Of a stretch of DNA of 64,000 bases, positions 5,469 to 43,853 are shown piece by piece. The notes under the pieces are model-generated. The model was not told the origin of the DNA. It ran no database searches and was given only the letters and a program-made list of their open reading frames with translations. Source of the stretch: a virus. Its lineage: Duplodnaviria > Caudoviricetes. The DNA is taken from positions 32,001 through 96,000 of IMG/VR virus record IMGVR_UViG_3300032038_000016, one strand, 5' to 3'. The position numbers and the translations under genes are program-made. Within the stretch, counting starts at the first letter, position 1. Each line of letters starts with the position of its first letter.

Positions 5469-5734
5469 ATGAGCACATCAAAACATTTAACAATGTGGAG
5501 ATTAATGCGGACTTTTCGACATATACAAATCACACGGATAACTTAGTATCACAAGAAAGTATTCGAACATCATTGGGTAAGATTCAGAAATGGAAGAATG
5601 ATTTTCATTCCGTTGTATGGGATGGAGATGCAGATACAGTTGGTGGATTTACGGTTGAAACAAATGTTTCAAGTGACTGGGTTGATTTATTAAAAGAAAT
5701 AATGTGGGGGTTAACCCCCACATTATTTGATTAA
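5469..5734 (+). pseudogene. frameshifted/truncated tail-fibre fragment
   Basis: ATG AGC ACA TCA at 5469 joins the 5495 ORF only via a -1 shift in the AAAA run. The product has fibre motifs (SLGKIQKW; GDADTVGGFTV) and runs into a terminator hairpin. Confidence 0.45.
5697..5728. terminator. perfect palindrome at convergent junction
   Basis: AAATAATGTGGGGG-TTAA-CCCCCACATTATTT. Confidence 0.7.
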
Positions 5735-7077
5735 GTAGTCATCATAGTTTGTTGCTGATTTTGATTTGCCGTTGGTTGCACATGAATTTGTCCTCTGGCA
5801 ACAGCTCTTCTTTGTGGTGGCATATTGGCATCTTCTGGATGTGCAGTAATCCATTTTTGCCAAGCATCCCATTTTAATTTCCATATATCATATTTATTAA
5901 TATCTTCAACGATTTTGAATATCGTATCATTTGTGAATAATATACAAGATTTAATTGTATTGGAAATTGTTTGAATAAAGGATAATAGAATAGAAACTGT
6001 TTTCTTTTCCATATTCTTTCCAATAAAATTTATGTTATTATATTTTGACGTATCTGTGATTTCTTTGTATTTTTGCATGTATGCTTGGATGTCTGCGATT
6101 GCTCGCATGGTTATTTTCATTGCATTACTTGGTGCTGTTTTGTCTTGTATCTTAAAGAAACCAAATCCCTGTTCACGTTCAATTCCCATCAGAATTCCTT
6201 CTTTTGCAGATTGACTCCATCCATTGTTATGAATAACTTGATCTTGTTCAATAGTAGTTTGCAATTGTTGTAATAGCTTATCAATATCGCCATGGTGAAC
6301 ACCTTTTGCAGATTTATCATATAATAAATTAAGAAGTGCCAATACATTGTCTAGCATTCGATGTGTTGAGTAATCGAATTCCGAAGATCTCTCGAAGAAT
6401 GTGTGTAAAAATACATTGACTTGTTCCATAATCCTTTGAGTGTCATCTTGTGGATTTGATATCGCACTTGTTAATTTTGGAATCTTGATATCTGTCAATT
6501 GTTTGCTCTCATCTAGATTTAGCCACATACTTTGGAAGTCACCTGGGTTTTCGGGTTTGACTACTGGCACATTATTTTCTGCAGTAGCAGGTTGTGATGT
6601 ATTTTGTTGCTGTGTACCAGTAGTTGTTTGTTGCGTATTAGTAGTCGCTTGTTGTTGCTGTTGTGCTTGTTGTTGCTGTTGTGCTTGTTGTTGCTGAACT
6701 TGTGATTGAGCCTTTTCAAAGAACTTCATTAACAAGTTACAAATTACTTTAATGATATTGGCGATTGTTGTCATGTATTTAAGCATGATAGTTGCATCAG
6801 GATTATTAGTTGTTTGCATTTGCTGATTTTGGTTCATAGTTGGAGCTGCATTGTTTTGTGCTGTATTTGTTGTGGTTTGTTGTTGTGATGGTGCTGATGA
6901 TTGCTTCACTTGTGATGATTGTTGCATCGCTGGTTGTGACGCAGCTGTTCCATCTTCTAATATCAATGCATAATAGTCAGACGTATCTGCTTCTTTTAAT
7001 AAGTATCTAGTTTGTTCCAATAATACTTCTGTAGAAGAAACTGCACATAGAAAATCTAATTCATTCAAATCAATCAT
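5731..7077 (-). CDS. putative internal head protein, shared-leader family, Gln-rich
   Basis: Leader ..SSTEVLLEQTRYLLKE..ALILE|DG, poly-Q/T linkers, amphipathic helix TIANIIKVICNLLMKFF. Confidence 0.55.
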   Translation of the reverse strand: MIDLNELDFLCAVSSTEVLLEQTRYLLKEADTSDYYALILEDGTAASQPAMQQSSQVKQSSAPSQQQTTTNTAQNNAAPTMNQNQQMQTTNNPDATIMLKYMTTIANIIKVICNLLMKFFEKAQSQVQQQQAQQQQQAQQQQQATTNTQQTTTGTQQQNTSQPATAENNVPVVKPENPGDFQSMWLNLDESKQLTDIKIPKLTSAISNPQDDTQRIMEQVNVFLHTFFERSSEFDYSTHRMLDNVLALLNLLYDKSAKGVHHGDIDKLLQQLQTTIEQDQVIHNNGWSQSAKEGILMGIEREQGFGFFKIQDKTAPSNAMKITMRAIADIQAYMQKYKEITDTSKYNNINFIGKNMEKKTVSILLSFIQTISNTIKSCILFTNDTIFKIVEDINKYDIWKLKWDAWQKWITAHPEDANMPPQRRAVARGQIHVQPTANQNQQQTMMTT

Positions 7078-8695
7078 GTTTTTCACCACCATCATTAATC
7101 ACATTTGTAATTTTCGTGTCATCACCATTTGTTCTTTTGTATTCTTCAATTTTCTTTGTTGCTCGTTTTTCCATCTTTTCATTAGAAGAGGAATCACGTT
7201 GACCAAGTCCATAGTCAATACAAACCCAACAATTACGATCGGATGACCACATGATGTTTCCATCATTAAAATCGGTTACAACTAATCTTAATTCAGGATG
7301 ACGAGCGGTAAAGTCTTTGAATTGATTCTTAACAGTTGTTAGCATTTGTGGGGTTGGATGTTTTCCTGCGCGATCCACAATACGCTCCATATCAATCACA
7401 GCACAATCTTTTCCATATTTCCCAACAATCGCAGCAGAAGCTTTGATCATATCTTCTTCCTTGGAACGTTGTAAGAATTCTGACATACGAACTTCATTCT
7501 TGTTGGATGTTAGACCACGTCCACTAAAAGCGATTTTTGTAATGATCTTCTTATCTCGTGGGAATAATACCATACGTGTCTGACCCATTGGGACTTTTTC
7601 GAAATCAGTTTTATCACCACGAATCTCCACATTGGCAATGAGCCATGTGTTATATGCGACAAACTTTGGAGGAACACCAGCATCAATACACATCTCCACA
7701 AACTTTGCCAAGTCATTTTTATTAGTAATGGAATTGACATATTGTGCTTTGATCATGTATACCTTACCAATCTCATTAGATAAACCATTTAACCCATGTT
7801 GACAAGTCTCCAATTCACGAACCAATTGATTCATTGCATCAATTGTTTCTCCATCCATATGAGAAATGACATGATTTGCATTTTGAAAATGATCCATCAT
7901 ATTGGTTAACTTGTTAATTGTTGCGGAGAATGTTGTGAATTCTTTCATGCTAATTTTTGTTCCACCAGCATTTAGTTCCGCACCAAGCTTGTGCGATTTC
8001 GCAATTGCTTTTTTAATATCATCACGAAGCTGTTTCTGATTGATTTCCTGTTTGTCAACCAGATCAACAGCTTGTTCAACAATTCTTCCCAAGTTTTCCA
8101 AAGCATCAGGATGTTTGATGTAATATACCATGTTCTTATAGACGATGGTATTGTCTTCTAATCCATGTACACCATGTGAATTGGATACATGTTTTAATTT
8201 TCCTTCATCATCCTTTTCGTAATTAACCCCGATTAATCCAATATACAGACTATCATCTTCTGTAATTTCTTTGATGAATATTGGTGTTGCGGATAACACC
8301 ACATTCTCTTTACCTTTGAATGGCGTCTTTAAATTACTTTCTGCTTCTGCCATTCGTTTCGGTAAATTCTTTTTTGGGACAACTTGTGATGCAACTTCAT
8401 TCGGTGTCTTGGAAGAACCCTTTGGCTTTTCCTTACGTTTGAAATTAAACATGCCTTTCAACAAGTTTGATGCATGATCAGCAACTCCATTCATGGCTTT
8501 TGTTGTTTTCTTTAATAATTGCCATGTACGAATACCGATATCTCCCTCTTGCACAATCTCATCATAAGAATGATGCATCAAATATTGTTCAATTAACAAA
8601 TATTCTTTGTGATTTTGCTCGAGCAATGTATTGATCACATTCTGTTGAGAATCATACATTGCTTCATCTAATTCTTCAAAAATGTAATCAATCAT
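7070..8695 (-). CDS. shared-leader protein with C-terminal protein-kinase-like domain
   Basis: GQTR Gly-loop remnant, ITKIA (Lys), NKNE (Glu), DMERI hinge, TDFNDGN catalytic loop, CIDYG; leader ends EIVQE|G. Confidence 0.75.
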   Translation of the reverse strand: MIDYIFEELDEAMYDSQQNVINTLLEQNHKEYLLIEQYLMHHSYDEIVQEGDIGIRTWQLLKKTTKAMNGVADHASNLLKGMFNFKRKEKPKGSSKTPNEVASQVVPKKNLPKRMAEAESNLKTPFKGKENVVLSATPIFIKEITEDDSLYIGLIGVNYEKDDEGKLKHVSNSHGVHGLEDNTIVYKNMVYYIKHPDALENLGRIVEQAVDLVDKQEINQKQLRDDIKKAIAKSHKLGAELNAGGTKISMKEFTTFSATINKLTNMMDHFQNANHVISHMDGETIDAMNQLVRELETCQHGLNGLSNEIGKVYMIKAQYVNSITNKNDLAKFVEMCIDAGVPPKFVAYNTWLIANVEIRGDKTDFEKVPMGQTRMVLFPRDKKIITKIAFSGRGLTSNKNEVRMSEFLQRSKEEDMIKASAAIVGKYGKDCAVIDMERIVDRAGKHPTPQMLTTVKNQFKDFTARHPELRLVVTDFNDGNIMWSSDRNCWVCIDYGLGQRDSSSNEKMEKRATKKIEEYKRTNGDDTKITNVINDGGEKHD

Positions 8696-10407
8696 TGGCC
8701 CACCTTCTTTTCGTTGTCATCATCATTTTTCTTTTTATTTGTCACAACATCACGAGATTCAAGGTTTTCATCTAATTTGGATGCTTTCTTTTCACTCTTC
8801 TTGGATTGTTTATCTAACTTTTCTTGAGTTGCAGAATTGCGTTTACCCAGGCCATAGTCGATACAAACCCATCTGTTTTTATCAGAAGACCACATAACAT
8901 TCCCATCATTAAAGTCGGAGATCACTAATCTTAATTCTGGATGACGTTTTGTGAAATCGGCATACTTCTGTTTTATTTCATTCAGAATCAATAAGTCGGG
9001 ATGTTTTCCGACACGATCCACAACACGTTCCATTGCAACAATTGCATCTTCATAATAGGAATTTGTAATCATTGCGGAAATGTCAATCATCTCTTGTTCT
9101 TTAGAGCGTTTTAAGAATTCTGCAAAACGAATCTCATTCTTGTTTGATGTGATACCAATACCACTAATCGCAATCTTTAAGATTTCTTTCTTATTATCAA
9201 TTGGGAAGAAAATACAACGAGTCTGTCCTGCAACCGGTTTGTATGTTGCTGCACTTCCACGAATCTGTTCATTTGCAATTAACCATGTATTGTATGCAAT
9301 ATACTTTGGTGGAATGCCATTCTGCACACATTCATACACAAACTTGGATAATACGTCACGATCATCAATAGAGTTCATATATTTCAAATCAATCAAATGC
9401 ACATTTTGCATTGCGTTTGTTAATGACGTTAAACCAAATTGAATATGTTCTGTGATGGATACGAGATTATTTAATGAATCAATCACACGAGAATCTACAT
9501 CATCCAAATTGTTATTACCATTCTGAGTAAAGTCTAGCATCTCTTCCAACTTATTAACTCTTGATTGGAATGCTGTTAATTCTTTCATTGTCATTTTTGT
9601 GTGTGATAAATCACGTAATGCATTTGTTTTTGCATCTGCTTTCTTCATTAATGTTCTAACTTTTTTGTGATAATCCATTGGATCCAAATCACCATTATTA
9701 TTCACAAATTTAAAACCTTGAACAATTAATTCTACAAACTCATCCATTTCACTTGGATTCTTTACAAAGAAAATTAATGCATTGGTATAAACAAATAATG
9801 ATGCGGTTGCTTTTACACCTTCGCCTTTATCTGCAATGGCATGTGCTTTTCCTTTATCATCTTTTACATAGTTAACACCCATCAAATCAATCATAAAGGA
9901 ATCATCATCATTAAATTCTTCAATCAAATATGCAGAATTGATTAATTCGATTTCTGATTGTGTTTCTTTTCCTTTGAATGGTAACTTCACACGTGCTTCT
10001 GATTCTGCTAACTTCTTATTTGGATCAAGCTTTTTACGTAATGCTTCATGTGCAATCGCAGAGGCACTTTTCTTTGCACCACTTTTTCGAAACTTACCAC
10101 TCATTCCTTGCATGACATCTTTTACATGTCCTAACAATGTTTTGATAACGGTAATATTTCTTTTGGATAAGGAACGCAATCTCATGAACAGATTTCCACT
10201 TTTTCTTTTTACTGTGGATAAAGCTTTTCCAATTCCTTCTTGGTATAAAATGTCAACTGGTTCCCGATGATGCTTGATACAAAGATCCAAGTATTCCCAT
10301 TCCTTATAAGATTCCATCACCATCTGTTCCAGAATCTTTTGTTGGGAACGTAATTTTGTTTCTTCCAATTCATCAACTTTTTCCATGATTAAATCTTCAA
10401 TCTTCAT
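8692..10407 (-). CDS. shared-leader protein with C-terminal protein-kinase-like domain (paralog of 7070-8695)
   Basis: GQTR, ILKIA, NKNE, AMERV, SDFNDGN, CIDYG; leader ends ILYQE|G. Confidence 0.75.
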   Translation of the reverse strand: MKIEDLIMEKVDELEETKLRSQQKILEQMVMESYKEWEYLDLCIKHHREPVDILYQEGIGKALSTVKRKSGNLFMRLRSLSKRNITVIKTLLGHVKDVMQGMSGKFRKSGAKKSASAIAHEALRKKLDPNKKLAESEARVKLPFKGKETQSEIELINSAYLIEEFNDDDSFMIDLMGVNYVKDDKGKAHAIADKGEGVKATASLFVYTNALIFFVKNPSEMDEFVELIVQGFKFVNNNGDLDPMDYHKKVRTLMKKADAKTNALRDLSHTKMTMKELTAFQSRVNKLEEMLDFTQNGNNNLDDVDSRVIDSLNNLVSITEHIQFGLTSLTNAMQNVHLIDLKYMNSIDDRDVLSKFVYECVQNGIPPKYIAYNTWLIANEQIRGSAATYKPVAGQTRCIFFPIDNKKEILKIAISGIGITSNKNEIRFAEFLKRSKEQEMIDISAMITNSYYEDAIVAMERVVDRVGKHPDLLILNEIKQKYADFTKRHPELRLVISDFNDGNVMWSSDKNRWVCIDYGLGKRNSATQEKLDKQSKKSEKKASKLDENLESRDVVTNKKKNDDDNEKKVGQ

Positions 10408-10413
10408 GTCTCA

Positions 10414-12606
10414 TCACCTCTTCTTTTTCATATGATAAGATTCCGTTACAAGAATGCCATTATTCAGAATCAAGTTTTGAACATGTTTATCCAAATCACC
10501 AGATTCACCCGGATCGAATGTTGTTTTATTATAATCATCCTTGATATTCGTCTTTTCAATATTGGAATAATTTTTAACGATCCATTCACAATATTTCTTT
10601 TGTTCGGGTGAAATCTTTTCTTTGCCACTTAAAATTTTTTTTGCAATTTGATATGCAGCATAATTGCGTTCACCAAATGTTGGATATGATGATAACGTAA
10701 ACTGTCTTAATTCTTTTTCCAATTCACTTAAGTATTTTAATTTATCTTCTGAAATATCATTTGCGGTAAATTCACGTTTGTTATAGCCGTATGTGAAAGA
10801 TAATGGTAAATTGTACATACCAGCAAACATATCACAATAGTATTCTTCTTTGTTTGCCCGATTCAAATAATCAGCGTAAGCTTGAGCTAATGCGGCATCC
10901 GCTTTATTTGGTAATAATTTGATCATGGGTAATCCGATGACTGAACCAACACCGGTACAACATAATGCAGAAGCCAAACGATTTAGCATTCTCGAACCTT
11001 TAGGATTCTTGAGATATTTATTACCCTTCTTAACAGAATCGGGTATCTTCTTTTCATATTCTTTCAAAGCCTTCTCATATTGAATGATCAAAGCCTCTAC
11101 TTGGCGATCTGCTTCACTCAATGATTTAGACTCTAATGCAGATTCTACTTTATCTAATTCTTGTTTATTATTTGCTAATGCGGAAATGTAACAAAGTTTC
11201 TTTACTAACTTTTTCTTTTCCATACGATTCAAGTCTTTACCATCAACAGATACTGTGTCGGAAAACATTTCAAAGATCTTACGTCTTTCTTCCGCATTTT
11301 CTGTTGACAATGCCATTGTCATTGCAGAAGTAGAAGTGTAGATAAACATATTTGTTCGACAACGAATTGCATTGACAATGTTATGGAATATTTCATGACA
11401 AAGTGATGCGCACATGAATTGACCAAACAGATCTTTATCGGTGTTCTTTTGCATCTCTTCGTCAATCGCATTATTCACACATACAATTGTAATTGGTAAT
11501 CCATTTAACTGGAAACCTTTTGATTTTGATACATAGATTTTGTCAACGTGATGATGATCAAATGTGTATGTAAACAAAGCATTTGTATTTTCTGTTGAAT
11601 CTTTAAAATGAATTGCTAATTTACAATCGAATTGTTTTTCCAAACAATTGATTCCCTCTTTGTAATGAGGAGATGAAACAAACTTAGTTAAATTCATTTC
11701 ACCTTTACCAGCTTCTTTTTGTTCATCACGAGCTTTGTTAAAGCATTGAATTGCTTTTGTAATGTATGTATTATCAAACTTCATATGCTTGACATCTTCT
11801 GGATTTACCTTCGCTTTTTGATCTTCAATTTCTTCTTCTAATGTAAATGATTCTGTTGGACGAACAAAATCAAATCCTTGTTCTTGTAATAATTCATATC
11901 CAAGAAAATCAGTATCATGATAATGTGACATTAAATCAATATGAAATGCACTTTCTTGAATATCAGAAGAAACATCTGTTGGAGTTGGTTCATTAGAATT
12001 CATGGTCTTTTCATCGATATTAGCATCTGTTTTTAACTCAATATCATCTTCTTCATTGAAGTATCCATTCTTCTTTCTTGTCATCGCTTCTGGATTATAC
12101 ATCGGAACCTTCATGGCATTTTTTAATTCATCTGCTTTGAGATGTGCTTCCTTTGTATTTGCCATATCCATTAATCCAGAATCATATACAAGAATTTCGT
12201 CTCCATTAGAATCTAAGTATCGGCCAATGACTTTCCCTTTGGCGGGGTTTGCATTTGTTGCGATATGATGTTCTTCTCTTCCTAATTTTGTTTCTATATC
12301 ATGTCTCTCATCTAATTTATCATTAATACGTTGAGAGATATGATCCAACACACCACCGATGGAACAAACAATTGCTTTCGTGTTCGGACGGACATCTGGT
12401 GGTGACATAATTTTATCATCGACTACCTTTAATGATGTTAATCCAGGTTGTGCCATGATATGTGTTGGGGCAATACCATACATTGCCCCAACACATTCTA
12501 ATGCAGTGATCATATCTGGTGATTCCGATACAATCTTTTTGATTTTGGATTTTGCTGTTTCATTAAAGGAATCGATATCAATTGTATCTACTTGATATTG
12601 TTCCAT
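10414..12606 (-). CDS. putative virion protein with zincin metallopeptidase motif
   Basis: LCHEIFH (HExxH) plus distal EEYYCDMFA; several x-x-E|S/T putative maturation sites. Confidence 0.6.
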   Translation of the reverse strand: MEQYQVDTIDIDSFNETAKSKIKKIVSESPDMITALECVGAMYGIAPTHIMAQPGLTSLKVVDDKIMSPPDVRPNTKAIVCSIGGVLDHISQRINDKLDERHDIETKLGREEHHIATNANPAKGKVIGRYLDSNGDEILVYDSGLMDMANTKEAHLKADELKNAMKVPMYNPEAMTRKKNGYFNEEDDIELKTDANIDEKTMNSNEPTPTDVSSDIQESAFHIDLMSHYHDTDFLGYELLQEQGFDFVRPTESFTLEEEIEDQKAKVNPEDVKHMKFDNTYITKAIQCFNKARDEQKEAGKGEMNLTKFVSSPHYKEGINCLEKQFDCKLAIHFKDSTENTNALFTYTFDHHHVDKIYVSKSKGFQLNGLPITIVCVNNAIDEEMQKNTDKDLFGQFMCASLCHEIFHNIVNAIRCRTNMFIYTSTSAMTMALSTENAEERRKIFEMFSDTVSVDGKDLNRMEKKKLVKKLCYISALANNKQELDKVESALESKSLSEADRQVEALIIQYEKALKEYEKKIPDSVKKGNKYLKNPKGSRMLNRLASALCCTGVGSVIGLPMIKLLPNKADAALAQAYADYLNRANKEEYYCDMFAGMYNLPLSFTYGYNKREFTANDISEDKLKYLSELEKELRQFTLSSYPTFGERNYAAYQIAKKILSGKEKISPEQKKYCEWIVKNYSNIEKTNIKDDYNKTTFDPGESGDLDKHVQNLILNNGILVTESYHMKKKR

Positions 12607-12632
12607 TCATAACACACCTTTCTGGTGAATTT

Positions 12633-15600
12633 TTATGCCTCAGCTAAAATAGTATGACCTACTGGAATATTCATCCCAGTTGATGGCTGCTTTGACTTAG
12701 ATGTTTTTTCTAATGTTGGTTCTTTCTTTTCCTTTGTGGTGGGTTGTTTAGAAACCCTTTCTTCCTTTGTGTGATGTTGACCCTTGAATACTGTGATTGT
12801 ATCACGATAAAGATTATAACTTACCATGTAGAATTTGTTTTGCAATGCATTTGTAAAAGCCGATGTGTATTCATTAGATATTTCCATAACCGATTTCAGT
12901 AATGCTTGTGCTTGTGCTAATTTTCTTTGCGTTATGGTATTTTCTGTTAATGGATCCCAATTTGGTGCTATTCCACCATTGTATTCATATGAGGTATATT
13001 GCTCCAGATCTCGTGTATCATTTATCATTCTTGATGATATGTGATTGATTTCTTCTTTTAATAGTGCAATGGATTTATTTAAATCCTCTGATACAAGTTT
13101 AGATATAATTTCAAGAGCTTTTCCTGAATCCAACAAATTATCTACTAATTCATCCCATAATTCAACGGATAATTCTTTTGCCGGTTCTGGTTTGTCAGTT
13201 GTTCCATATAAGAAATAATTTGATAATAGTTTTGCATTATTAGTAAGATTCTCTTTGTCAGCAATATTTCTGGCAGTTATTTCTTCAGCTGTTTCAACAT
13301 TTTCTGCTGTTTTTGCAGTAATTTCTTTTGCCATTGCCTGTAATTTAGACATTGCAGTGTTTTCTCGATAATCATTAGCATCACCCTGGAATACCTTAAT
13401 CCATCGATCCGGTGCTAATAATGCACCAGTGCTTACATCATTTGGTGATCCTGATGATCTGTTAGTGACTTCAACACCGGCTGCATGCAATGCCGCGATA
13501 ACGATTGATGAACACACATAACTGTTTCTAACATCTTTTGGTGCCCCTTTTGTATCTAATTTTTTATCAGTTTTGAAGAATGATTTTGCAATTTCTGCCC
13601 ATGAGTATTTAACTTTTTCAACATTTGCCCGAAGATCATGTAAAAATTTATTCAATTTTTCATATGATTCTTGAGTTAACCATGCTCCATATACAATAAT
13701 TGAAGATTGTTGAACTGGTTCATTTTCTTCTGATCCGTAATAATCAGGTGCTAATTTTCTACCATGTTTTGGTCCGCCTTCTGCTGTAATTACAACTTCA
13801 TGCGGTGCATTTTTTGGTCTTTTTGTGATATTATCATTTTTCGTAACCATTGCTGGTATTGCATCTTTTGCAATATTAGAAAATGGAGTAATTGAATAAC
13901 ATAATTCCAATTTCGGATCCAAGGATATTACACAATGAGAAACAGAACTACCGGTCGCCATCAAAATTCCTTTTGTGACTTTTGATTCTTTTTCTGTTAT
14001 ATCATGATTGTGTAAAATTACAAACACTGGGTGTTTGTCGGATGTGTCAAAAGATTCTGTGAATATTGTTTGATTTTCTATTTTTCGCGAAAAATATTCA
14101 GCAATAGCTTCATTATTTTCACCTTGATTCGTTTTATTGTCTTCCGGTTTTGATGTTGGTAATAACTCCTTCTGTTTATTTTCATCAGGTTTCGGTTTTG
14201 GACTTGTTGATTTGTCACCACTAAGTTTGCCAATAACTTCGTCTGGATAATACATTTTTTTCAATTCAAATGTTGTTGGTACATCATTAGTATTTCCACT
14301 ATCTATGCAATGTTTTATTATATCAAACATTTTCTTTTTGGTAATATTCTTGACTTGCAATTTGAATCTCGGCCAACCAACAATTGTTGGTTTAAATTTA
14401 CCAGCTTTGATTGCTTCACTAATTTGGTGATTTAATTCGGAATTCTTTTTAACAAATTCAATTTCTTGTTTATGATTCTTTGCGAACGAAATACCAAGTT
14501 TGGATAATGTATTCTGAATCCATGAAATGAACTTATTAATCATTCTCTTGATCCATTCGATGAGTTTCTTAATGTGCTCTTTAATTGTTTTTGCTTTACC
14601 AGAAGAAACACTCGGCTTTTCTTTCTTTTCCTTTGAACTATTACTATCAGAAGCTTCCATAACAAATGTATGGAATTCTTCAATTTCAAACGGTGTAAAG
14701 AAAGATTCGGTATACATATAACCAGGAGCATCTACATCATCCATATTATCAGATGCAATGATTGTCATATGATTTGTATATAATTTAATCATAGCGCGAG
14801 TCATAATCTCACCCAATACAGCAAGAATATCACGAACCATTTCCCAGTTATTCATTCCACATGCACCATATGATTCACAAATGCTTTTCATTAAATGTGC
14901 AATCTTGATGATATGTTCACTCAATTCTTCTTTTGTTGTAAGATCCTTTTCGGTGAACATACGGTACAACATTTCGAGTGTTTGTTGAATGGGATGACGA
15001 TGATCATTTCCTACCGCATCTTCACCACGATAATCTCCATCGATAAATGTGTTACCATAAGCAATCTTATCCAACCAATTCACATCGGTATGGAAATCAG
15101 TTTCATGAAGTTTATTGTTCAATTCGTCATAATTCATTTCGATACCACAGTGACCATTCATGAACATCTTGCAAATCATCATACCATCCAATCCATTGAT
15201 TACTTCGGAAGGATGTCCATAACGATACAACATTTGGGCAATTGGTGAACGAGTATCTGTTGTGATAAACTCAATTGCGGACACAGTATCCTTGAAATGT
15301 GGATGCATATCTTGCAATACAATATTTCTCATATTGATATCGAATGGGAGTTTTGATGTACATCTCATGGTGTTTGTTTTTAATAAGCAACATTCTGTGA
15401 CAACATTTCCACCCTTTTCCAAACGTTTTGATTTAGAACGTTCAGCAAAAGCTCTCATTCTCTCCATTACATCTTCTTCATCATATTCATCATATGTACC
15501 AGAGTAAACATGTTCAAACATATTCATCTTTGTCATGACAGACTTTTCAAAATCTCCAGGAGCTGGATAATTCTTTTCAGTAACATTAATGTTTGCATGT

Positions 15601-24075: not shown

Positions 24076-24087
24076 GAGGTGATCCAT

Positions 24088-25281: not shown

Positions 25282-25291
25282 GGTGACGACG

Positions 25292-32462: not shown

Positions 32463-32473
32463 CGAACACGGAG

Positions 32474-33094
32474 GTGATCAATCAAGTGGATAATAATCTA
32501 TTTCTAATGGTTATGGAAGCAGGTGGTACAACACCAACACCAGAACCAGCTCCATTTGATGCCGGTGCTGACGCTGGAGCATCACCTTTTGATGCCGGAC
32601 CGCCTCCTGATATTGGAGAACCCCCACCATTGGACTTGAATGACGATGGTATGGGTGGTGATATGTCGGATCTAGGTATGGGTGATGGTACTGGTGGTGA
32701 CGGCACAGGTGATGGATCCGGTGATCAAGATCAACAAGAAGAAGGCACACAAAACGGTGGAGAAAAATTATCTGAAAAAGCAAATAGTATCTTGAATCAG
32801 AGACTATATCAACAGATGATGGATCGAAACCAAGAGATCGAAGACATCATGGAATCGATCAACAGAATTGTCCCATTATTATCTTATGAGACAATTAAAG
32901 CGAATGATCAGAATATGAATCGCTTAAAGAATGCACATGAAAAAGGTAAGAGTTATTTGATCGAGAAATTCATCGATGCAAAATATGGTGAAAATTTAAT
33001 CTTCTACCAAAAGCTTGATGCATTATACACATTGCTATTAGAGCAAATCAACAATAATCTGAAAAAGGTTAAAAATTCAAATGAAATGAATTAA
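32474..33094 (+). CDS. putative scaffold/prohead core protein
   Basis: Immediately upstream of the capsid gene; VME|AG site, acidic Gly/Asp/Pro tract, helical C-terminus. Confidence 0.45.
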   Translation: MINQVDNNLFLMVMEAGGTTPTPEPAPFDAGADAGASPFDAGPPPDIGEPPPLDLNDDGMGGDMSDLGMGDGTGGDGTGDGSGDQDQQEEGTQNGGEKLSEKANSILNQRLYQQMMDRNQEIEDIMESINRIVPLLSYETIKANDQNMNRLKNAHEKGKSYLIEKFIDAKYGENLIFYQKLDALYTLLLEQINNNLKKVKNSNEMN

Positions 33095-33123: not shown

Positions 33124-35331
33124 ATGGCATTTAGTCGTTCTGCCGCTTCACACGGCTCATGGTTCCAAGAACAAGCTAACATGATTAATACTGCAACTGC
33201 TTCAGAATTGGAAAGCTTGACTGATGGATTTGACCGTCGATTCCAGGATACTGTACAGACTCTGAAGAGCACCTATAATACAAACGTTATGAAGGATGCT
33301 AAGAGAATGATGGAAAATCCAGCAATTATGGAAGAATACAAGTCCATGATGCTAGATCCCATTATTCAGGAAATGCAAGAAATTGCTGACAATACTGATT
33401 CCGAAGTTGAAAAGGTTCATCTAGAGCAGGTAATGGATCAGCTCGATAAAGCTTGGGATGCATCCCAGCAGTCCTTCCTCATTCAGGAAAGCTACAACGT
33501 TTCCAACTATCTACCTCTTGCTACACTAGACTTCCCTGCACTTGTTAAGCAGTATATCAGATTCCTTGGTAAGGAACTCATTCCTGTACAGACTGCTTCT
33601 TCTACCAATATTGAACAGCGTATCTTCGTAAAGTATCTCGTTGATAATAATACTGGTGAAGAGTATGAAACACCTGCAATCTTCTTCCAAGAAGATCCTG
33701 ATAATCCTGGTAAGAAGCTTTGGAAGAAGCTTTGGAATGCAGGTAAGGGTTATCGTATTAATGATACCGAACCGATCATGATGACAGAATTCCAGACTGC
33801 TCCTAACAAGAAGCTGGATATGTTTACAAAGCTTCTTGATGATAATGGTAAGCCTATGACTCTTGATAGAGCAACTAACATGAGAGCTCGTCTGTCTTAT
33901 GATTTCAATATTCAGTATGTTCAGATTGCTGCTAAGCCTGAATCTACGACTACTACTTATGTGGCAACTTCTCTAACTACTGCACCAACTGGTTGGCCTA
34001 CTGGTTATTACACCGATGCAACTGGTACAACTGCAGCTCCTAATACATTCGCTGCTGGTACTTATTACAAGAAGAATGTTACCACAATTCCTGCAAGAGG
34101 TGCTAAGAAGGTAAAGCTTCCTGGTGCTGGTATTGCAATTGATATCCAGTCTGGTGGTACATTCCTGAATGGTGGTATTACCGAGAGCATGAAGCTTGCT
34201 GTTGTTGGTGCTGATGCTACCGATGCTAAGACATTCAACATTCCTACTGGTGAAGTTGTTACTGGTGTTTCCGATAGACTTTCTGGTATTGTTGATTTCG
34301 TCAAGGGTACTGTAACCGCATCTTCTTGTGGTGAAATCGAAGGTATCTACATCAATGGTAGAATGTCTAATGAAACCAACATGAGAACAATCGGTTTCCG
34401 TGAGTATCCGGAAATTCGTAAGTTCTTGATCAGTGATGGTTGCAGATTCCAGCTTCCGTTCACAGTTGAAGACTTTGCTGAAGCTAACGCTTCTCTGAAC
34501 TTCAACCTCTATAACAGACTGGTTCAGGAACTTGTTACTGCACAAGAAATGTTTGAAGATGAATCCATTCTGGAATTCCTTGATGAAGAATTCGACAAGT
34601 ATGATGGTTATGATTCTGATGTATTTGCATTGGATTCTTATACTCATACTGAATATGTTGACCTTGATCCTTGCTCCATCTCTAAGAACTTTGCAGGTGA
34701 TCCTTGGGAATACAGAACCAATGCAATTCATAATGCAATTGCTTCTTTGATCTATGAGCTTTGTGATCGTGGTAAGCTGGAGAACCTTGGCTTTGTTATT
34801 TATGCAAACCCGAAGGCTACCCGTCTCCTCAGTAAGTTTGTGACATGGACTGTTTCTAAGAGCACAGAAATCGGTGGTGTTCAGATGAACCATGCATTCG
34901 GTGTTGTAACTGATACTGAAATTCCGATTCGTGTTGTTGCTTCTAACAGAGTTCCTGCATATACAACCATTCCTGCATCTATGATTCCTACTTATGCAGC
35001 AATGGAAGATCTGACAGATGAAGATGTATCTCGCGAATACTTCTTCCATATTGTTGCTTATCCGATGGATAAGTTCCATATCTCCTACAAGCATCTCAGA
35101 TTTGCTCGTCACTTGACCAACTCTCCTGAGAATGCTGGTTATGCAGATATCCACAATCCTGGTGGTCAGGCTGTACTCGTAACAACTTCTTCTCAGTATA
35201 AGACTATCGCAATCCAGGGTATTCAGGGTAGAGTTATTTGTAAGAACTCCCAGCTCGTTCCGGATGCTATGGCTGGTCTGGTTACTACTACAACTGCAGA
35301 TACTACTACAGATCCCACTACAAATCCATGA
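33124..35331 (+). CDS. major capsid protein (gp23-like HK97 fold)
   Basis: Propeptide ending FLIQE|S; LDFPALVKQY..ELIPVQT and FTVEDFAEANA..ELVTAQEMFEDESILEFL resemble gp23 motifs; strong high-expression codon bias; follows the protease gene. Confidence 0.8.
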   Translation: MAFSRSAASHGSWFQEQANMINTATASELESLTDGFDRRFQDTVQTLKSTYNTNVMKDAKRMMENPAIMEEYKSMMLDPIIQEMQEIADNTDSEVEKVHLEQVMDQLDKAWDASQQSFLIQESYNVSNYLPLATLDFPALVKQYIRFLGKELIPVQTASSTNIEQRIFVKYLVDNNTGEEYETPAIFFQEDPDNPGKKLWKKLWNAGKGYRINDTEPIMMTEFQTAPNKKLDMFTKLLDDNGKPMTLDRATNMRARLSYDFNIQYVQIAAKPESTTTTYVATSLTTAPTGWPTGYYTDATGTTAAPNTFAAGTYYKKNVTTIPARGAKKVKLPGAGIAIDIQSGGTFLNGGITESMKLAVVGADATDAKTFNIPTGEVVTGVSDRLSGIVDFVKGTVTASSCGEIEGIYINGRMSNETNMRTIGFREYPEIRKFLISDGCRFQLPFTVEDFAEANASLNFNLYNRLVQELVTAQEMFEDESILEFLDEEFDKYDGYDSDVFALDSYTHTEYVDLDPCSISKNFAGDPWEYRTNAIHNAIASLIYELCDRGKLENLGFVIYANPKATRLLSKFVTWTVSKSTEIGGVQMNHAFGVVTDTEIPIRVVASNRVPAYTTIPASMIPTYAAMEDLTDEDVSREYFFHIVAYPMDKFHISYKHLRFARHLTNSPENAGYADIHNPGGQAVLVTTSSQYKTIAIQGIQGRVICKNSQLVPDAMAGLVTTTTADTTTDPTTNP

Positions 35332-35395: not shown

Positions 35396-35399
35396 TACT

Positions 35400-35961: not shown

Positions 35962-37353
35962 GTGGTCAATTTGGAAAATATGACAACAGTTCTCGTTAAG
36001 CAAGCACTTCATTCGTGTGACGGTAATCTATTGAAAGATGTTGTGAACATCGAACATCCTCGTGAGAATTATAAGAATTATATAATTCATGAATATGCTG
36101 GTGATGTTCCGAGATTATGCGGAAATGAACGTTCAATTGAATTATTACTTCCACGAGACATGAGTGTTGTAATGGAAAATGCAGTCGTGGATGCGATTGA
36201 ATCTGGTACATTGTTTGACGATAAAAAAGATATTGATAATACGGTGAAGTATATTCACATGACACATCTACCACATACTGGGATGATGCATTTGAATTTA
36301 CCAGAACCACATGAAACAATTCATGCAATTGGTACGGTAGTTGGTGCGATGGGACCGGATGGTCATTTTGGTCATGCTGATTCTGACATTAAGAATGGTG
36401 CAAATTACGCACGTGATTTGACGGATCATTATAATGACAAAGATTCAAGTATTTCTGATTTGACGAAAGACTACTTGAATGTCAAGGATAAGAATGATGA
36501 AGACAGCATTCCAAAAGACATGAAATATTCATTGTCAAAAGTTCATGATGAATTAGATGATGTCAAAAAGGTAAAACCAGAAGACACTGTCGATGAAGAT
36601 GATTATGAAGAAATCGGTTTAGATCATGAAGAAGATGATGATTACGACGATGATGAAGAAGACGACGACGAATGTGAAGAATGTGATGATGACGAATGTG
36701 ATGATGATGAAGACGATGAAAAAGATTCTGAATCAGATGAAGACGATGAAGATGATGACGAAGACGACGAAGAAGATTCTGATGATGAAGATGACGAAGA
36801 TGACGATGTAGATTTCAAAGATGAAGGTGCGATTGAAAATTATATCGCAAAGAAAATCGTGAAGAAAGCAGTTAAGAAAACAATCAAAAAAGGTACAAAG
36901 AAAGCTGTTAAGAAAGGTGCTAAAAAATCAATTAAGAAAGCAAGACGCCGTCATCATGAAAAAAATAATGATGATAAATATGGCTCAGCATATCATGAAT
37001 ATGCAATGTATCAAGAGACTGGTGCAATGCTGATTAAACCAAAGAAGCTAAAACCAATTCCTCGAGATGTGGTGGCATACATAATTACCAGAACGAATGA
37101 AATTCGAGATAGTAATGATCAAGCGATGTTATCTGGATATACTTGTTCTAAATTAGAATTAGTTGATTTCTATTTAAACTGTATTGATACTCATGACTAT
37201 CGATACATCGTTCCCCATAATAGGCAATACCTTGTTCAAATGCAGAATGATTTGAATCGTTGTTTACAACAAATTCTTCGTGTGAAACCTGTCAATCGTT
37301 TGGATCGTGTTTGGCGATTGAATGTAACTTATCCAGAAGGGTTTGGTGGTTAA
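35962..37353 (+). CDS. putative head protein with long Asp/Glu tract and Lys-rich tract
   Basis: Roughly 75-residue D/E stretch, KKAVKKTIKKGTKK.. segment, MYQE|TG site before the C-terminal domain. Confidence 0.6.
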   Translation: MVNLENMTTVLVKQALHSCDGNLLKDVVNIEHPRENYKNYIIHEYAGDVPRLCGNERSIELLLPRDMSVVMENAVVDAIESGTLFDDKKDIDNTVKYIHMTHLPHTGMMHLNLPEPHETIHAIGTVVGAMGPDGHFGHADSDIKNGANYARDLTDHYNDKDSSISDLTKDYLNVKDKNDEDSIPKDMKYSLSKVHDELDDVKKVKPEDTVDEDDYEEIGLDHEEDDDYDDDEEDDDECEECDDDECDDDEDDEKDSESDEDDEDDDEDDEEDSDDEDDEDDDVDFKDEGAIENYIAKKIVKKAVKKTIKKGTKKAVKKGAKKSIKKARRRHHEKNNDDKYGSAYHEYAMYQETGAMLIKPKKLKPIPRDVVAYIITRTNEIRDSNDQAMLSGYTCSKLELVDFYLNCIDTHDYRYIVPHNRQYLVQMQNDLNRCLQQILRVKPVNRLDRVWRLNVTYPEGFGG

Positions 37354-37354
37354 T

Positions 37355-37906: not shown

Positions 37907-37913
37907 TTGTATT

Positions 37914-39611
37914 ATGTTTACAGAGATCGATGATATTCAGTTAAAAAGTGAATTGAACACGACAATTAGTCTCGTCAATCTGTATCAAAAGCAGTTAACA
38001 TTATTGGAATATTTTGATGATAGCGTTGAAATTTCTGAAAATGATGTATTCACAGAAGCAACTGAAGCAGCAATTCAAAAGAATGATACGGCAATACAGA
38101 AGCAGGATGGACAATGGTCCAAAACCAAAACCGGTGACAATAATGATACTGCTGTGGATGATAATGCTGGTAAATCCACAGGTGGTTTTCTTAGTAATCT
38201 CGGCAATAAGATTTGGACTGCGATTAAAAAATTCTTTAATATGATTAGAGGATTTTTCAGAAGGCTTTTCAAAAAAGATAACGCTCAAAGAGTCGGTGAA
38301 GCAGCACTTACTGTCGGTAACTTTTTCGAGAATGCATCTGATGAAGAAATTCAAGAAGTTATTGACACAATGGAAAAAGGCAAAGAAGGTGAAGTAGGAG
38401 TTTCTGAAGGAACTGATTCTGAAGGAACTGATAATGAAGCACCTGTCACGGAAATGTTTGTTTATGAAGCGTCAAACGAAGTTACGAAAATGCCAAAAAA
38501 TACACCAGCAGATGATTTAGCATATTTGAAGAAAGCGTTATATGCTATGAAAACACAGAAGGGTTTCTTTGTATCAAGAATTCATAAAAGAGATTATCCG
38601 AGATATGCAAAACAAATGATTGCTTTATTGGAAGATTATGCAAAGAGAATTAATGATTCACAAGGTAATGAATTAGTTGATATGGAGCATCTAATCAACA
38701 TGTCAAGAACTACAAAAGCAAAAATGAAGTTCTGCGCAGCAAATCTTGCAGCAGCTACAACATGGCATTCTAATATTGGCGGATCATTAGTTTCATATAA
38801 AGGATATGAAGCATTTTATAAAAGCATCATGGAAATCAATGCAGCTTTAAGTAAGTCAATTGGTGATCTAGAAAAAGCAATGGCTAATGCCGAAAAGAAT
38901 ATCAAAGCATGGGAGAAGAAAATTAATAGTTCTAATAATTCACAATACGGACGTGGTTTCACAAGAAATAAGTATCCAAGGATGGCTAAGAATCTACATG
39001 CTTTATATACCGATCTATCTGATATTATGAAATATTTAGCAACAACGGTTAGCAATACAGTTGCTAAAACAATGACTGCTGAAGTAAACTTCATTCTCAC
39101 ATTGAGAGGTGTGGTTGTTAAGGTCAACAAAACATCTTCAGGTTCAAGAAAGAAAAAGAATGACGGTCAGCAACAACAGCAACAGCAACAACAGCAAACC
39201 CAAAACCCACCACCAAAGGGAAAATCAAAGTCAAATAAATATGTGATGGCAACAGATAATGTTGGTCTTAATAGTGATGGGGAGATAAGTGATAAGTTCA
39301 TGGGTCCAGAAATTAGTAAACAATTAGAGACTGTATGTGGTGGAAAAGTCAAATTTGCTGATATGGATAAATACTATGTAGAATTATTCACAAAGGCAAA
39401 GGGATACCCAGCCGAGTTAACTAGTCTATCGGGATTCAATAGTAATAAGGCTTATACAATTGCTGTGACAGCAAATAAATGCGGGAAATTCCTAGTTGTG
39501 CAATCTGGCAAAGTTAACAATGACTCAATGATTAAAAAGGCATACAATAAGAAACTTAACAACTTCGAATTCAATATGAATACAGGAGCAACGAATCCAA
39601 AACTAGATTAG
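37914..39611 (+). CDS. putative internal head protein, shared-leader family
   Basis: IDDIQLKSELNTTISLVNLYQKQ..VFTE|A then FLSNLGNKIWTAIKKFFNMIRGFFRRLF; ATG at 37914 after AAGGAG. Confidence 0.65.
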   Translation: MFTEIDDIQLKSELNTTISLVNLYQKQLTLLEYFDDSVEISENDVFTEATEAAIQKNDTAIQKQDGQWSKTKTGDNNDTAVDDNAGKSTGGFLSNLGNKIWTAIKKFFNMIRGFFRRLFKKDNAQRVGEAALTVGNFFENASDEEIQEVIDTMEKGKEGEVGVSEGTDSEGTDNEAPVTEMFVYEASNEVTKMPKNTPADDLAYLKKALYAMKTQKGFFVSRIHKRDYPRYAKQMIALLEDYAKRINDSQGNELVDMEHLINMSRTTKAKMKFCAANLAAATTWHSNIGGSLVSYKGYEAFYKSIMEINAALSKSIGDLEKAMANAEKNIKAWEKKINSSNNSQYGRGFTRNKYPRMAKNLHALYTDLSDIMKYLATTVSNTVAKTMTAEVNFILTLRGVVVKVNKTSSGSRKKKNDGQQQQQQQQQQTQNPPPKGKSKSNKYVMATDNVGLNSDGEISDKFMGPEISKQLETVCGGKVKFADMDKYYVELFTKAKGYPAELTSLSGFNSNKAYTIAVTANKCGKFLVVQSGKVNNDSMIKKAYNKKLNNFEFNMNTGATNPKLD

Positions 39612-39633
39612 TATCATAAAGGGTGTGATATCA

Positions 39634-41259
39634 ATGAATCAATATTTACTTGATAGAATAGATGACAACGCCATTATCAATGAATTTAATACAGCGATTG
39701 TTTTATTGGAATATTATCAAAAATATATTCGTATGGACAATTATTATCAAGAAGATGGCATGGAAATTCAACAGTCCGAAGGGACTTTGACAATGGATGG
39801 TCTTCGTGATAAAGTAAAAGGAAAATTGGATAATCAACCGAAGAAAGTTGGTTTCTTTGAAAAGATCAAAAATGCAATTAAAAAAGCAATTGATGCAGTT
39901 AAGAAATTCTTTGCAAAAATATTCAACAAGGATACAGAAAAAGAAAAAGTTGAAGCATCAAATGCAATTAACGAAATGAAACAATCAAATGTATCCGAAG
40001 AAACTTTTGTTGAAGAATTAGAAGAAGCCATTGGTGATGATGTGGAAGAAACTGTTGATACAGCTGAACCGGAACCACAAGAAACCCCACCAAGTAATAC
40101 ACCACAGACGGTAGATAATACAGCAGATAATACGACAGATGATTCGGAAGAAACTCCGCCTAAACAATCATACGAAACACCTGAATTATCGATTGAAAAA
40201 CCAGCTGTTACAAAAGGGAAAGTAAAAATCCCAAAAGAAAAAAGACAAGCTGTTGAAACACTTTGTTTGGAATGGTACAAAACTGGTCAGTGTCCAAGTA
40301 GAATTTCAGCAACAGTCGTTAACTTAATTGATCAGTTTGCTACTGCGATTGCCAAGCTTGTAAATACTTTGCAAACTGCTGATGTTACAAATCTTACAAA
40401 TCCAGAACAATTGTTAGCTGGTGTTAATAGAATTTCACAGCAATTGCATTCTGAATTACAAAAGGATCTCGAATTGAATAATCGAGGTTTATCTAAGCAA
40501 GAAGCAAACAGTGCTTTTGTTGATGCAAGAACATCGAAGAAAGCCGCACAAAAATTAAATAAATCGATTGAGTTATTAGAAGACACAATCATGAAAATAT
40601 CAGTAGAAGATCCCCAAAAAGAAAAGCTGTTTTCTCAAATATTTGCTGGTATGAAAGGTCCAATTGCAACAGCTATGAGTGCTGCAAAAATGATTAAAGA
40701 AACAGAAGATCTTGTTGCATTATCAGAAAGATCAATAAAAGTTGTTCTTGGTAATATATTTGGTAAAACGAGATTTGATAGACTTCATGGTGCTAGATTA
40801 AAAGGTAAAAAGAAAGCAAAGAATTTGGCAAATCGTGTAGATGATGAAAATCAACAAGACTTGCTTAACAGAAATCAGAAATACGTTGCTGGTAGAATTG
40901 ATAATAAGGAACAGCAATTGTTTAGAGATCTGGATGATCAAGTAAGAGATGTCCGTAAAAAGGGTGGTAAACCAAAAAGAGATATTGATACATCTACAAT
41001 ACCCACTGTCGACAATAATGGATTGGTTACGCATTCTGAAGAAATTCCGGCAGATGAAATACCAGATGAATTAAGAACTGCTGCTGAAAATCCAGATAAT
41101 GGTATTGATTTTGATGATCTTGCTGCCCAGTATGATCAAAAACCAAAATCATTTTTAGGTAAGGCAGCCGATGGTGCTCGTAGAGCTGGTCAGAAAATTA
41201 AGGACGTAATGACTCGAGATATTACACTTCCTAGAAGAAAAGCAAGTGCTGAAGGATGA
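39634..41259 (+). CDS. putative internal head protein, shared-leader family
   Basis: IDDNAIINEFNTAIVLLEYYQKY..YYQE|DG then GFFEKIKNAIKKAIDAVKKFFAKIF. Confidence 0.65.
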   Translation: MNQYLLDRIDDNAIINEFNTAIVLLEYYQKYIRMDNYYQEDGMEIQQSEGTLTMDGLRDKVKGKLDNQPKKVGFFEKIKNAIKKAIDAVKKFFAKIFNKDTEKEKVEASNAINEMKQSNVSEETFVEELEEAIGDDVEETVDTAEPEPQETPPSNTPQTVDNTADNTTDDSEETPPKQSYETPELSIEKPAVTKGKVKIPKEKRQAVETLCLEWYKTGQCPSRISATVVNLIDQFATAIAKLVNTLQTADVTNLTNPEQLLAGVNRISQQLHSELQKDLELNNRGLSKQEANSAFVDARTSKKAAQKLNKSIELLEDTIMKISVEDPQKEKLFSQIFAGMKGPIATAMSAAKMIKETEDLVALSERSIKVVLGNIFGKTRFDRLHGARLKGKKKAKNLANRVDDENQQDLLNRNQKYVAGRIDNKEQQLFRDLDDQVRDVRKKGGKPKRDIDTSTIPTVDNNGLVTHSEEIPADEIPDELRTAAENPDNGIDFDDLAAQYDQKPKSFLGKAADGARRAGQKIKDVMTRDITLPRRKASAEG

Positions 41260-41268
41260 TGATTTTTT

Positions 41269-42027: not shown

Positions 42028-42035
42028 GAGAGGAG

Positions 42036-43853
42036 ATGTTGAGTATGATTAACGATTCGATCGAATTAATAAATGATATTGATGATTATAATCTCGAATT
42101 TGAATATTGTATAACTCGTAATTTATTAGATTATTATGAAAAAATGCTGTATATGGAATTTTATTTAAGAACATCAGTATCTACATCTTCTGTTATATTA
42201 GAATCAGATGTGCCTGAAAATGATTCATCTAAAAAACAAGGGTTTCTTTCAAAGATATGGAATGGAATTAAAAAGATTATTGATATTATTATCAATTCAA
42301 TAAAAAAGGTCATAACAAATATTAAAAAACATTTTTCAAAAGTAGAAAGAGTCAATAGAGTATTGAAATCTGCATCCAAAGAAGATCTTTCAGAAATTGA
42401 GCAATTATTTAAAAAATATGGAAATGAAAATACATCATCTGGAGATGATTCTCAGGGTCAAGATGTCACAACAGAATCAGCCACAACACTACTCACTACT
42501 GCAAAAAATATTGGAAAAGCTTATTCAAAAATGAACTCAGCTAAAACTATTCCTGGAAAAATATCTGCTGCTACAAACGTGTTTGGACCACAAATTGCTA
42601 ATGAGCTGGCTAAAAAAGCAACTACCTCAACTGTAGCAACTGCTGCTGCAGCAGCTGGTGGTCATGCTATTACAACATCTGTTACAGCAGCGTTGACAAC
42701 ATTCGCTGGCGCAAGCGTTGCTGCTTCCACAACCGGTTTATTAGCAACAATTAATGCACCAACTTTGATTGCGACAAGTATTATTAGCTTGGCTATATCT
42801 GGTACTAATAAATTCATTAATTCAACTGAAAAAGGAAAAGAAAAATATAGAAAAGAACATACAAATTTACCAACAATGGATCAAATTTTATATACTGGAG
42901 CCTTTTTGTCAAAAAATATGAATTCGATTAATACACAGGTTGCATCATTATCAACTTCTTCAACATTAAGAACTGGATCTATTACTTCGCTTATTTCGGC
43001 AGATGTCAAACGAACATTAAATGATATTGAAAAAATTAAAAATTATGCTTGGAAATCGACTAATGCAAATGAACCGGTTGTATTAGAAACTATGCGGAGA
43101 GTGTCGTTATTTCATGAAAGAATTTTAAAATTAAGAGAACAAGGATCTAGAATCAAAGAGAGATCTAAGGGAACAGACAACCTTGTTTCATCGTTTGATA
43201 CATTCGAAGATGCCGCTATTTTTACAGATTCATACACTGTATTTTCTTCTATTCAAGGTAATGAATTAAATAATATGCTACAAGATTTGGATAATAAAAT
43301 GGAAGAATTTAAATTATCATTTGAAAATAACCCTATATTCCAAAATTTGTATAATATGGCAGGGGATGAATACACTGATACTACAGAAATGGGAATTATT
43401 AAAACACGCGATGCAAAGAAGCAAGATGCGATAAATAAAAAACAGAATGACCAATATTTGAAGGAATCAGACAGAAAATTTGAAATTACAATTAAAAATG
43501 ATCTTGTACCAATAAGAGCATTTGTTGATGCAGTTGCTAAATATATATTTGGTGTAAAAGAGGCATATGATGTCACATTAGAGGTGTGTCAGGCTCTTGC
43601 TATTACCAGTCGAAAAGTATTGCGATTTATTAATAACAATTCTGCGCTTGCTGATGTTGCAAATGAAAATAAACGAGTTAATCGCTCAAGAGAAAACGTA
43701 TTTAGCAAACTTGGTAATCAATATCTAACTGGTAAAGGATCAACAAAATATTCCAGAGATGATGGTAGATATAATGATGAAAACCATCAGAAGTATACTT
43801 CAGATAATCTCACAACAGCGCTTGACAATGGAAATACTGTTATTCCACAATAA
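42036..43853 (+). CDS. putative internal head/ejection protein, shared-leader family
   Basis: IDDYNLEFEY..LLDYYEKM..VILE|SD, GFLSKIWNGIKKIIDII; long Ala/Thr hydrophobic segment. Confidence 0.65.
   Translation: MLSMINDSIELINDIDDYNLEFEYCITRNLLDYYEKMLYMEFYLRTSVSTSSVILESDVPENDSSKKQGFLSKIWNGIKKIIDIIINSIKKVITNIKKHFSKVERVNRVLKSASKEDLSEIEQLFKKYGNENTSSGDDSQGQDVTTESATTLLTTAKNIGKAYSKMNSAKTIPGKISAATNVFGPQIANELAKKATTSTVATAAAAAGGHAITTSVTAALTTFAGASVAASTTGLLATINAPTLIATSIISLAISGTNKFINSTEKGKEKYRKEHTNLPTMDQILYTGAFLSKNMNSINTQVASLSTSSTLRTGSITSLISADVKRTLNDIEKIKNYAWKSTNANEPVVLETMRRVSLFHERILKLREQGSRIKERSKGTDNLVSSFDTFEDAAIFTDSYTVFSSIQGNELNNMLQDLDNKMEEFKLSFENNPIFQNLYNMAGDEYTDTTEMGIIKTRDAKKQDAINKKQNDQYLKESDRKFEITIKNDLVPIRAFVDAVAKYIFGVKEAYDVTLEVCQALAITSRKVLRFINNNSALADVANENKRVNRSRENVFSKLGNQYLTGKGSTKYSRDDGRYNDENHQKYTSDNLTTALDNGNTVIPQ

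Follow-up and report, generated by a model that had tools for sequence, protein, structure and literature searches.

A shared N-terminal leader with registered glutamate motifs on diverse proteins of a jumbo phage head-gene block, a candidate capsid-targeting propeptide

The leader family and its members

We analysed a 64,000-nucleotide stretch of viral DNA, hereafter the window, which covers bases 32001-96000 of the 130,667-bp (130.7-kb) viral contig IMGVR_UViG_3300032038_000016 (GC ~35%; CheckV completeness ~48%). Its head-gene block contains a family of genes whose diverse products share a leader, an acidic helix followed by sites of the form hydrophobic-hydrophobic-x-Glu. A first-pass annotation had named about twelve leader-bearing open reading frames (ORFs) in the window; all 12 carry the motif where it had been placed, and the count has to be raised by one, since another, the 13th, lies beyond the window amid virion-protein genes, at contig (G000) 5797-7035 (+). 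The window members are listed here with window coordinates; the part of each protein beyond the shared module is called its cargo.

5731-7077, minus strand: leader protein 1, with a Gln-rich cargo; core 6988-7074, predicted site E47 (longest ORF), amphipathic helix 6712-6765; the weakest member
7070-8695, minus strand: leader protein 2; core 8600-8686, predicted sites E36 and E50, C-terminal residues ~320-525 protein-kinase-like
8692-10407, minus strand: leader protein 3, a kinase-like paralog of 7070-8695; core 10297-10383, predicted site E57
17770-20310, plus strand: 846-aa protein with an internal leader copy; core 18955-19041 (residues 396-424), predicted site E453
20866-21747, plus strand: leader protein 5; core 20887-20973, predicted site E50 (longest ORF)
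21744-22805, plus strand: leader protein 6, a remote paralog of 20866-21747; core 21744-21824, predicted site E36, amphipathic helix 21879-21932
25292-26395, plus strand: leader protein 7; core 25283-25366, predicted site E31 (longest ORF), amphipathic helix 25433-25486
26413-27615, plus strand: leader protein 8; core 26431-26517, predicted site E43, amphipathic helix 26608-26661
27635-28735, plus strand: leader protein 9, a paralog of 25292-26395; core 27638-27724, predicted site E33, amphipathic helix 27812-27865
37914-39611, plus strand: leader protein 10; core 37911-37997, predicted site E68 (longest ORF), amphipathic helix 38220-38273 (the strongest)
39634-41259, plus strand: leader protein 11; core 39643-39729, amphipathic helix 39859-39912
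42036-43853, plus strand: leader protein 12; core 42063-42149, predicted sites E41 and E56, amphipathic helix near 42300-42353, cargo with a hydrophobic Ala/Thr-rich stretch

The starts at 7077, 20866, 25292, 37914 and 39634, which the first-pass annotation had chosen, agree better with Shine-Dalgarno-like sequences than do those of the longest ORFs.

When the members are anchored on one invariant Lys (K), their 29-residue acidic cores align without gaps. The pattern consists of Ser at K-14 and then E-x2-V-x3-L-x3-Y-x-K-[EQ], with an I-D-D-like triplet 7 or 10 residues ahead of the Ser. Behind the core come one or two hydrophobic-hydrophobic-x-Glu sites at a fixed register and then a disordered linker; a basic amphipathic helix usually completes the module. 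Every site string that had been quoted from the letters is present.

A profile built from the twelve N-termini, the check proposed with the original reading, was scanned over the contig and its relatives and compared with shuffles. Leave-one-out hidden Markov models on the first 80 residues were scored against the 331 non-member ORFs of the contig (at least 60 aa) and 10,290 shuffles. Each left-out member scored above all 331 other ORFs, and 11 of the 12 were matched by at most 3 shuffles; the ORF at 5731-7095 is the sole weak member, with 6.0 bits, a score reached by 42 shuffles. The shared motif is confirmed as real and far above chance. Mean identity between the cores is 42% in nucleotides and 23% in amino acids; with so little identity in the DNA, the similarity lies at the protein level, and a DNA-level repeat is ruled out as its origin. 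A double-glycine bacteriocin-type leader or secretion signal was likewise ruled out, the Gly-Gly site being absent and the genes lying within a head-gene block.

The leader is not confined to this contig. Together, the contig and 51 related loci hold 75 non-redundant ORFs that match it, 73 of them within the first 60 residues; the other two ORFs encode the 846-aa protein at 17770 and an ortholog of it. Each of two complete relatives carries 9-10 copies, and the half-complete focal contig 13. A search of 1.84 billion protein cluster representatives (50%-identity clusters) with a 57-position leader profile matched 684 representatives at E<=1e-3 and 90 at E<=1e-10. Among the best 150 of these matches, 148 begin at residue 1-26, and the two exceptions are an apparent mis-called start and a low-scoring repeat protein. 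The anchor Lys is invariant in every alignment, and the Tyr at K-2 is invariant in an alignment of 68 proteins.

The 846-aa protein with the internal copy has an extra hydrophobic-hydrophobic-Q-E site ending at E19, and it may be cleaved to give two products. Its N-terminal 390 residues, ahead of the internal leader, are built as a two-fold repeat that contains E-C-G-D-G-like motifs and runs of Lys and is kept in relatives.

Glutamate sites and the amphipathic helix

Between K+3 and K+30 the hydrophobic-hydrophobic-x-Glu motif occurs at 0.0595 per residue versus 0.0076, a 7.8-fold enrichment. At least one such site is present in 56 of 57 non-redundant members and in all 123 of the near-full-length library proteins (68 cargo clusters) used to define its geometry. 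In this set, site 1 ends at K+6 in 93 proteins and site 2 at K+21/22 in 114, and the distance from the N-terminus to the Glu of the last site has a median of 57 residues (range 43-74). Glu is near-invariant at P1 of both predicted sites. The last site has Gln at P2 in 87 proteins, with Gly (54) or Ala (46) at P1'.

The Lys/Phe/Trp amphipathic helix that had been noticed after most leaders is borne out by its frequency. With the helix defined as an 18-mer of hydrophobic moment >0.6 and charge >=+3, lying at most 110 residues past the leader, 69% of the 75 members have one, compared with 6.7% of 357 controls. The leader and the basic helix occur together in 69-79% of members, while 20-30% keep the leader without a clear basic helix. 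The mean net charge of the leader is -9.5, versus -1.6 in controls, and that of the helix is about +4.

An AlphaFold2 model of the module at 39634 (from the Met at that position) places the leader in a helix of residues 2-40, with a predicted local distance difference test (pLDDT) of 93-98, which stops precisely at the predicted P1 Glu. Next come a disordered linker and a second helix, and the leader and the basic helix show no confident mutual packing (predicted template modelling score, pTM, 0.39). A complex prediction of the leader with the N-terminal 130 residues of the capsid protein and the scaffold-like protein described below scored 0.00, which counts neither way.

The opposite charges of the two helices, and their frequent co-occurrence, are what would be expected if the acidic leader were an intramolecular mask or chaperone for a basic, possibly membrane-active helix. 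Precursors would then be harmless and soluble until the protease activated them in the head, and targeting would depend on something else; the strongly hydrophobic segments of some cargos also fit this idea. However, the models do not pack the two helices confidently, the leader is retained in the 20-30% of members without a clear basic helix, and the invariant Lys and Tyr, together with the fixed register of the sites, suggest a common external partner. We regard masking as an unlikely explanation of the family.

Protease, capsid and other head-gene products

In this block the leader genes alternate with protease, scaffold-like, capsid and virion RNA polymerase subunit genes. Its recognisable head genes comprise a head-maturation protease (PHROGs; Pfam Peptidase_S80), the major capsid protein and pieces of a phiKZ-type virion RNA polymerase. 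Four products other than the leader proteins bear on the meaning of the Glu motif.

28758-29600, plus strand: prohead protease, Pfam Peptidase_S80 (phiKZ gp175 family), 32.8 bits against a cut-off of 23.4
32474-33094, plus strand: scaffold-like acidic protein, so placed by its position just ahead of the capsid gene
33124-35331, plus strand: major capsid protein, with motif sites ending at E16, E71, E101 and E122
24079-25281, plus strand: 400-aa head-block protein, with a short N-terminal W-F-Q-E peptide shared with the capsid protein; its site ends at E22

The protease, whose gene lies within the same block as the leader genes, also matches PHROG head-maturation-protease families, and its H92, S159 and H193 are invariant among 30 sequences; a sequence search of the PDB with it gave only a chance match (E 0.64). 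Its longest ORF, from 28671, is probably over-extended, since a Shine-Dalgarno-like sequence goes with the Met at 28758. Two invariant copies of the Glu motif occur in the protease, one close to its N-terminus and one at E232, ahead of the C-terminal ~48 residues, and these positions suggest that the enzyme processes itself. In the capsid protein, the sites at E16 and E122 are invariant in 30 orthologs, with related sites at E71 and E101; this arrangement suggests a propeptide of ~122 residues, cut into pieces as in SPN3US. The scaffold-like protein has an invariant hydrophobic-V-M-E site, followed by Ala, near its N-terminus.

In the giant phage SPN3US the capsid protein is processed at residue 130 and the protease loses a C-terminal peptide; its propeptides have multiple cut sites, and the published accounts leave the role of these propeptides open but call it 'likely' similar to that of a capsid-targeting sequence (CTS) (PMC5694885, PMC10052503). 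Because the positions of the motif in the capsid protein and the protease of the window parallel this processing, we infer by analogy that hydrophobic-hydrophobic-x-Glu is the cleavage motif of this clade.

The same observations bear on another possibility, that the module stays uncleaved at the N-terminus as a stable domain shared by diverged paralogs, for example a permanent portal or inner-capsid anchor, in which the Glu motifs serve only helix packing. Cleavage is after all a prediction, site 1 lies inside the helix, and members occur in tandem gene arrays, all of which would suit such a domain. Set against this, the last site falls at the helix end or in the disordered linker, a small P1' is strongly preferred (Gly or Ala in 100 of 123), and the motif is invariant in the capsid protein and protease where relatives process them. 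A permanent domain seems to us very improbable.

The capsid protein also places the phage. One identical to that of the window is present on a 267-kb contig, and 32 IMG/VR contigs (up to 295 kb) encode capsid proteins 53-77% identical to it. The closest cultured phages, Yersinia phiR1-37, Bacillus Goe21 and Staphylococcus jumbo phages, are distant, at 21-38% identity, and a megablast of 24 kb against GenBank phages gave 0 matches. Judged by these sequences, with only distant cultured relatives, the source is an uncultivated jumbo phage of the phiKZ/AR9 supergroup.

Two further features of the surroundings stand apart from the leader family. At 10414-16823 (-), in the same minus-strand block as the kinase-like genes, two large proteins of 730 and 1396 aa have no leader. 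A 463-aa protein encoded at 35962-37353 (+) contains a run of ~90 nearly pure Asp/Glu residues and then a Lys-rich stretch; possible roles are those of a DNA mimic or of an internal protein of the head.

Cargo diversity and the role of the leader

Beyond the module, profile-profile comparison places the window cargos in at least nine unrelated groups. The first-pass annotation had held the downstream parts to be unrelated apart from two paralog pairs; the diversity stands, and the pairs number three (7070/8692, 25283/27635 and, weakly, 20854/21744). The 123 library proteins fall into 68 BLAST cargo clusters, and in an alignment of 68 cargo-distinct representatives conservation is limited to the first ~95 columns. 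Searches of Pfam and PHROGs with the 12 window proteins and the 68 library representatives gave almost nothing except phrog_4301 on the kinase domain. Between orthologs the leader is 32-61% identical whether the cargo evolves fast (16-38% identity) or slowly (67-74%), and this steadiness fits a module under its own constraint.

One cargo of note is the C-terminal domain of the tandem paralogs at 7070-8695 and 8692-10407. Its K387 and E401, which would correspond to the beta3 Lys and alphaC Glu of kinases, D475, N480 (in D-x4-N) and D494-Y-G are invariant in 36 homologs. Its top fold matches are all kinases, with RIO/Bud32 at Foldseek probability 0.9-1.0 and E about 3e-3. The VIA-align comparison with YabT gave a middling Z of 6.4, with a root-mean-square deviation of 3.5 A over 136 residues. 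From these middling model-based scores we describe the domain as minimal and protein-kinase-like. A PDB sequence search with the kinase-like protein found no match, and a search for short leaderless forms of the domain returned fragments only. A third leader-bearing kinase-like paralog is encoded in a complete relative (G001 120849-122498).

Several cargos of relatives have strongly hydrophobic, transmembrane-like segments; for the cargo of 42036-43853, a search of the ESM Atlas gave no usable match. One cargo family (L004 2005-3408; library proteins P0002-P0013, P0096 and P0177) has a hydrophobic segment, and P0002 has a Pfam SseC-like match. The proteins of this family end in conserved N-N-H-W-Y-[RK], before which most of them have an acidic stretch and a V-Q-E site, and this tail may be a C-terminal propeptide. 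A domain of ~100 residues (102) from the 25292/27635 cargo pair recurs in a 1644-aa leaderless protein of a relative (G001 179635-184569 (-)), with 29% identity to 27635-28735 (E 8e-7).

We consider it reasonably probable that the shared N-terminus is a capsid-targeting propeptide, removed by the protease, on internal or ejection head proteins of this phiKZ/AR9-supergroup phage. This agrees with the cleavable capsid-loading leader proposed in the first-pass annotation, which is favoured by the N-terminal position, the fixed register of the Glu, the S80 gene in the block, the motif in other head proteins and the diversity of the cargos; packaging, virion location, cleavage, the binding partner of the leader and ejection or injection are what we infer from these features. 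On this reading the leader proteins would probably be ejection proteins. In such a scheme the acidic amphipathic helix of ~39 residues, with its invariant Lys and near-invariant Tyr, would dock the precursor into the assembling prohead core. After closure of the shell the S80 protease would cut past the Glu of the hydrophobic-hydrophobic-x-Glu motifs at K+6 and K+21/22, and the leader fragments would leave the capsid. The mature protein would stay inside, beginning with a short flexible stretch and the basic amphipathic helix, and would be delivered with the DNA.

Several observations weigh against this interpretation. The leader was found in no cultured phage: a search with its profile gave nothing at E<=1 in the complete genomes of Bacillus Goe21, Yersinia phiR1-37 and Staphylococcus SA1 or in one distant viral contig. 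The published substrates of S80 proteases (S/A/G-x-E in phiKZ, A-x-E in SPN3US) have a small P3, and the predicted leader sites depart from them in their hydrophobic P3/P4, which is nearer to the L/I-x-E of T4. Since the predicted helix encloses site 1, this site may have a structural role and not be cleaved. The functional unit may be more than the leader by itself, because the amphipathic helix is conserved along with it. Finally, many members lie in tandem arrays resembling duplications and, with the three paralog pairs, these arrays indicate that part of the spread of the leader is plain duplication.

The last two points also qualify the claim that the leader is a portable packaging tag. 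The diverse cargos speak for it, but the conserved unit is the whole module of ~95 residues including the amphipathic helix, many members form tandem arrays, and a search of three genomes for leaderless homologs of leader cargos yielded only the 102-residue domain noted above, with no clear case of one cargo having gained or lost the leader.

It is also conceivable, although we think it rather doubtful, that the leader helices themselves make up the assembly core, as heteromeric coiled-coil bundles forming the prohead scaffold or 'inner body'; the family would then be primarily structural, and its members would not chiefly be effectors with an address. In favour of this, the hydrophobic residues of the leader show heptad-like spacing along one long amphipathic helix, which is modelled confidently without an intramolecular partner (at the pTM given above), each genome has about 10-13 copies, most cargos are helical, low-complexity or unannotated, and a T4 gp22-like scaffold is unconfirmed in giant phages (PMC5694885). 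Yet a separate scaffold-like gene lies ahead of the capsid gene, and the kinase-like and transmembrane-like cargos resemble effectors or conduit proteins. Both a core-forming and a masking role could coexist with targeting. A combination of this kind is a tentative idea, slightly less doubtful to us than the purely structural role: the leader and helix would be a mobile loading cassette whose coiled-coil leaders co-assemble as the scaffold or core of the giant-phage head, so that the cargo builds its own scaffold and any protein given the ~60-residue leader is packaged, trimmed and delivered.

Comparison with known systems helps to define what is new in the candidate propeptide. The CTS of phage T4, on the internal proteins IPI-III and Alt, has 10-20 residues (Mullaney and Black, 1996, as cited in PMC5694885). 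Like the leader, it is an N-terminal peptide common to unrelated proteins and ends at hydrophobic-x-Glu; in T4 an assemblin-type prohead protease cleaves there, the peptide is removed once assembly is over, and the cargo enters the cell together with the injected DNA. The leader is longer (43-74 residues up to its last predicted site), with a helix of ~39 residues, an invariant Lys, two registered sites and a basic helix after it. It has no sequence similarity to the CTS, its targeting function is a prediction, and the protease of this phage is of the S80 type as opposed to T4 gp21. The phages phiKZ, 201phi2-1 and SPN3US belong to the same supergroup as this phage, as indicated by the virion RNA polymerase subunits and the S80 protease. 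In these phages numerous proteins inside the head carry N-terminal propeptides that are cleaved after Glu, frequently at more than one site, and the paralog arrays differ in size (PMC5694885, PMC10052503). Their propeptides, however, mostly have 111-254 residues, and these two papers describe no consensus across families, whereas the leader has one short consensus over at least 68 cargo clusters. Comparison with Pfam phiKZ_IP (PF12699) gave a best contig match of 16.9 bits against a cut-off of 27, and 1 of the 68 library representatives matches it (E 8.8e-4).

In encapsulins, whose shell has the HK97 fold, and in bacterial microcompartments, a short conserved cargo-loading or encapsulation peptide or amphipathic helix sends diverse cargos into a protein shell. 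Those tags are not removed by a protease, and encapsulin tags are C-terminal and bind the shell directly, so that their likeness to the leader is one of analogy only. In extracellular contractile injection systems (eCIS/PVC), diverse effectors need a segment of ~50 residues at the N-terminus in order to be loaded into a delivery particle of phage origin; there the loading is into the tail tube and not the capsid, the signal is disordered, and there is no defined protease step. The concept is thus known from the T4 CTS and phiKZ-type propeptides, and the literature we found does not describe the leader family. The leader is a new and unusually well-defined family, in which a single consensus with an invariant Lys and two registered sites unites hundreds of cargos.

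Giant-phage heads hold tens of megadaltons of packed protein, and the leader bears on how this cargo is selected. For head propeptides of giant phages, the family gives the first consensus that is compact and can be aligned, and it makes testable the partner of the leader, the recognition of its sites by the protease and the set of proteins that a phage sends into the cell. Among the cargos are kinase-like enzymes and membrane-type proteins. If the tag were sufficient for loading, it would provide a natural design for placing proteins in phage capsids.

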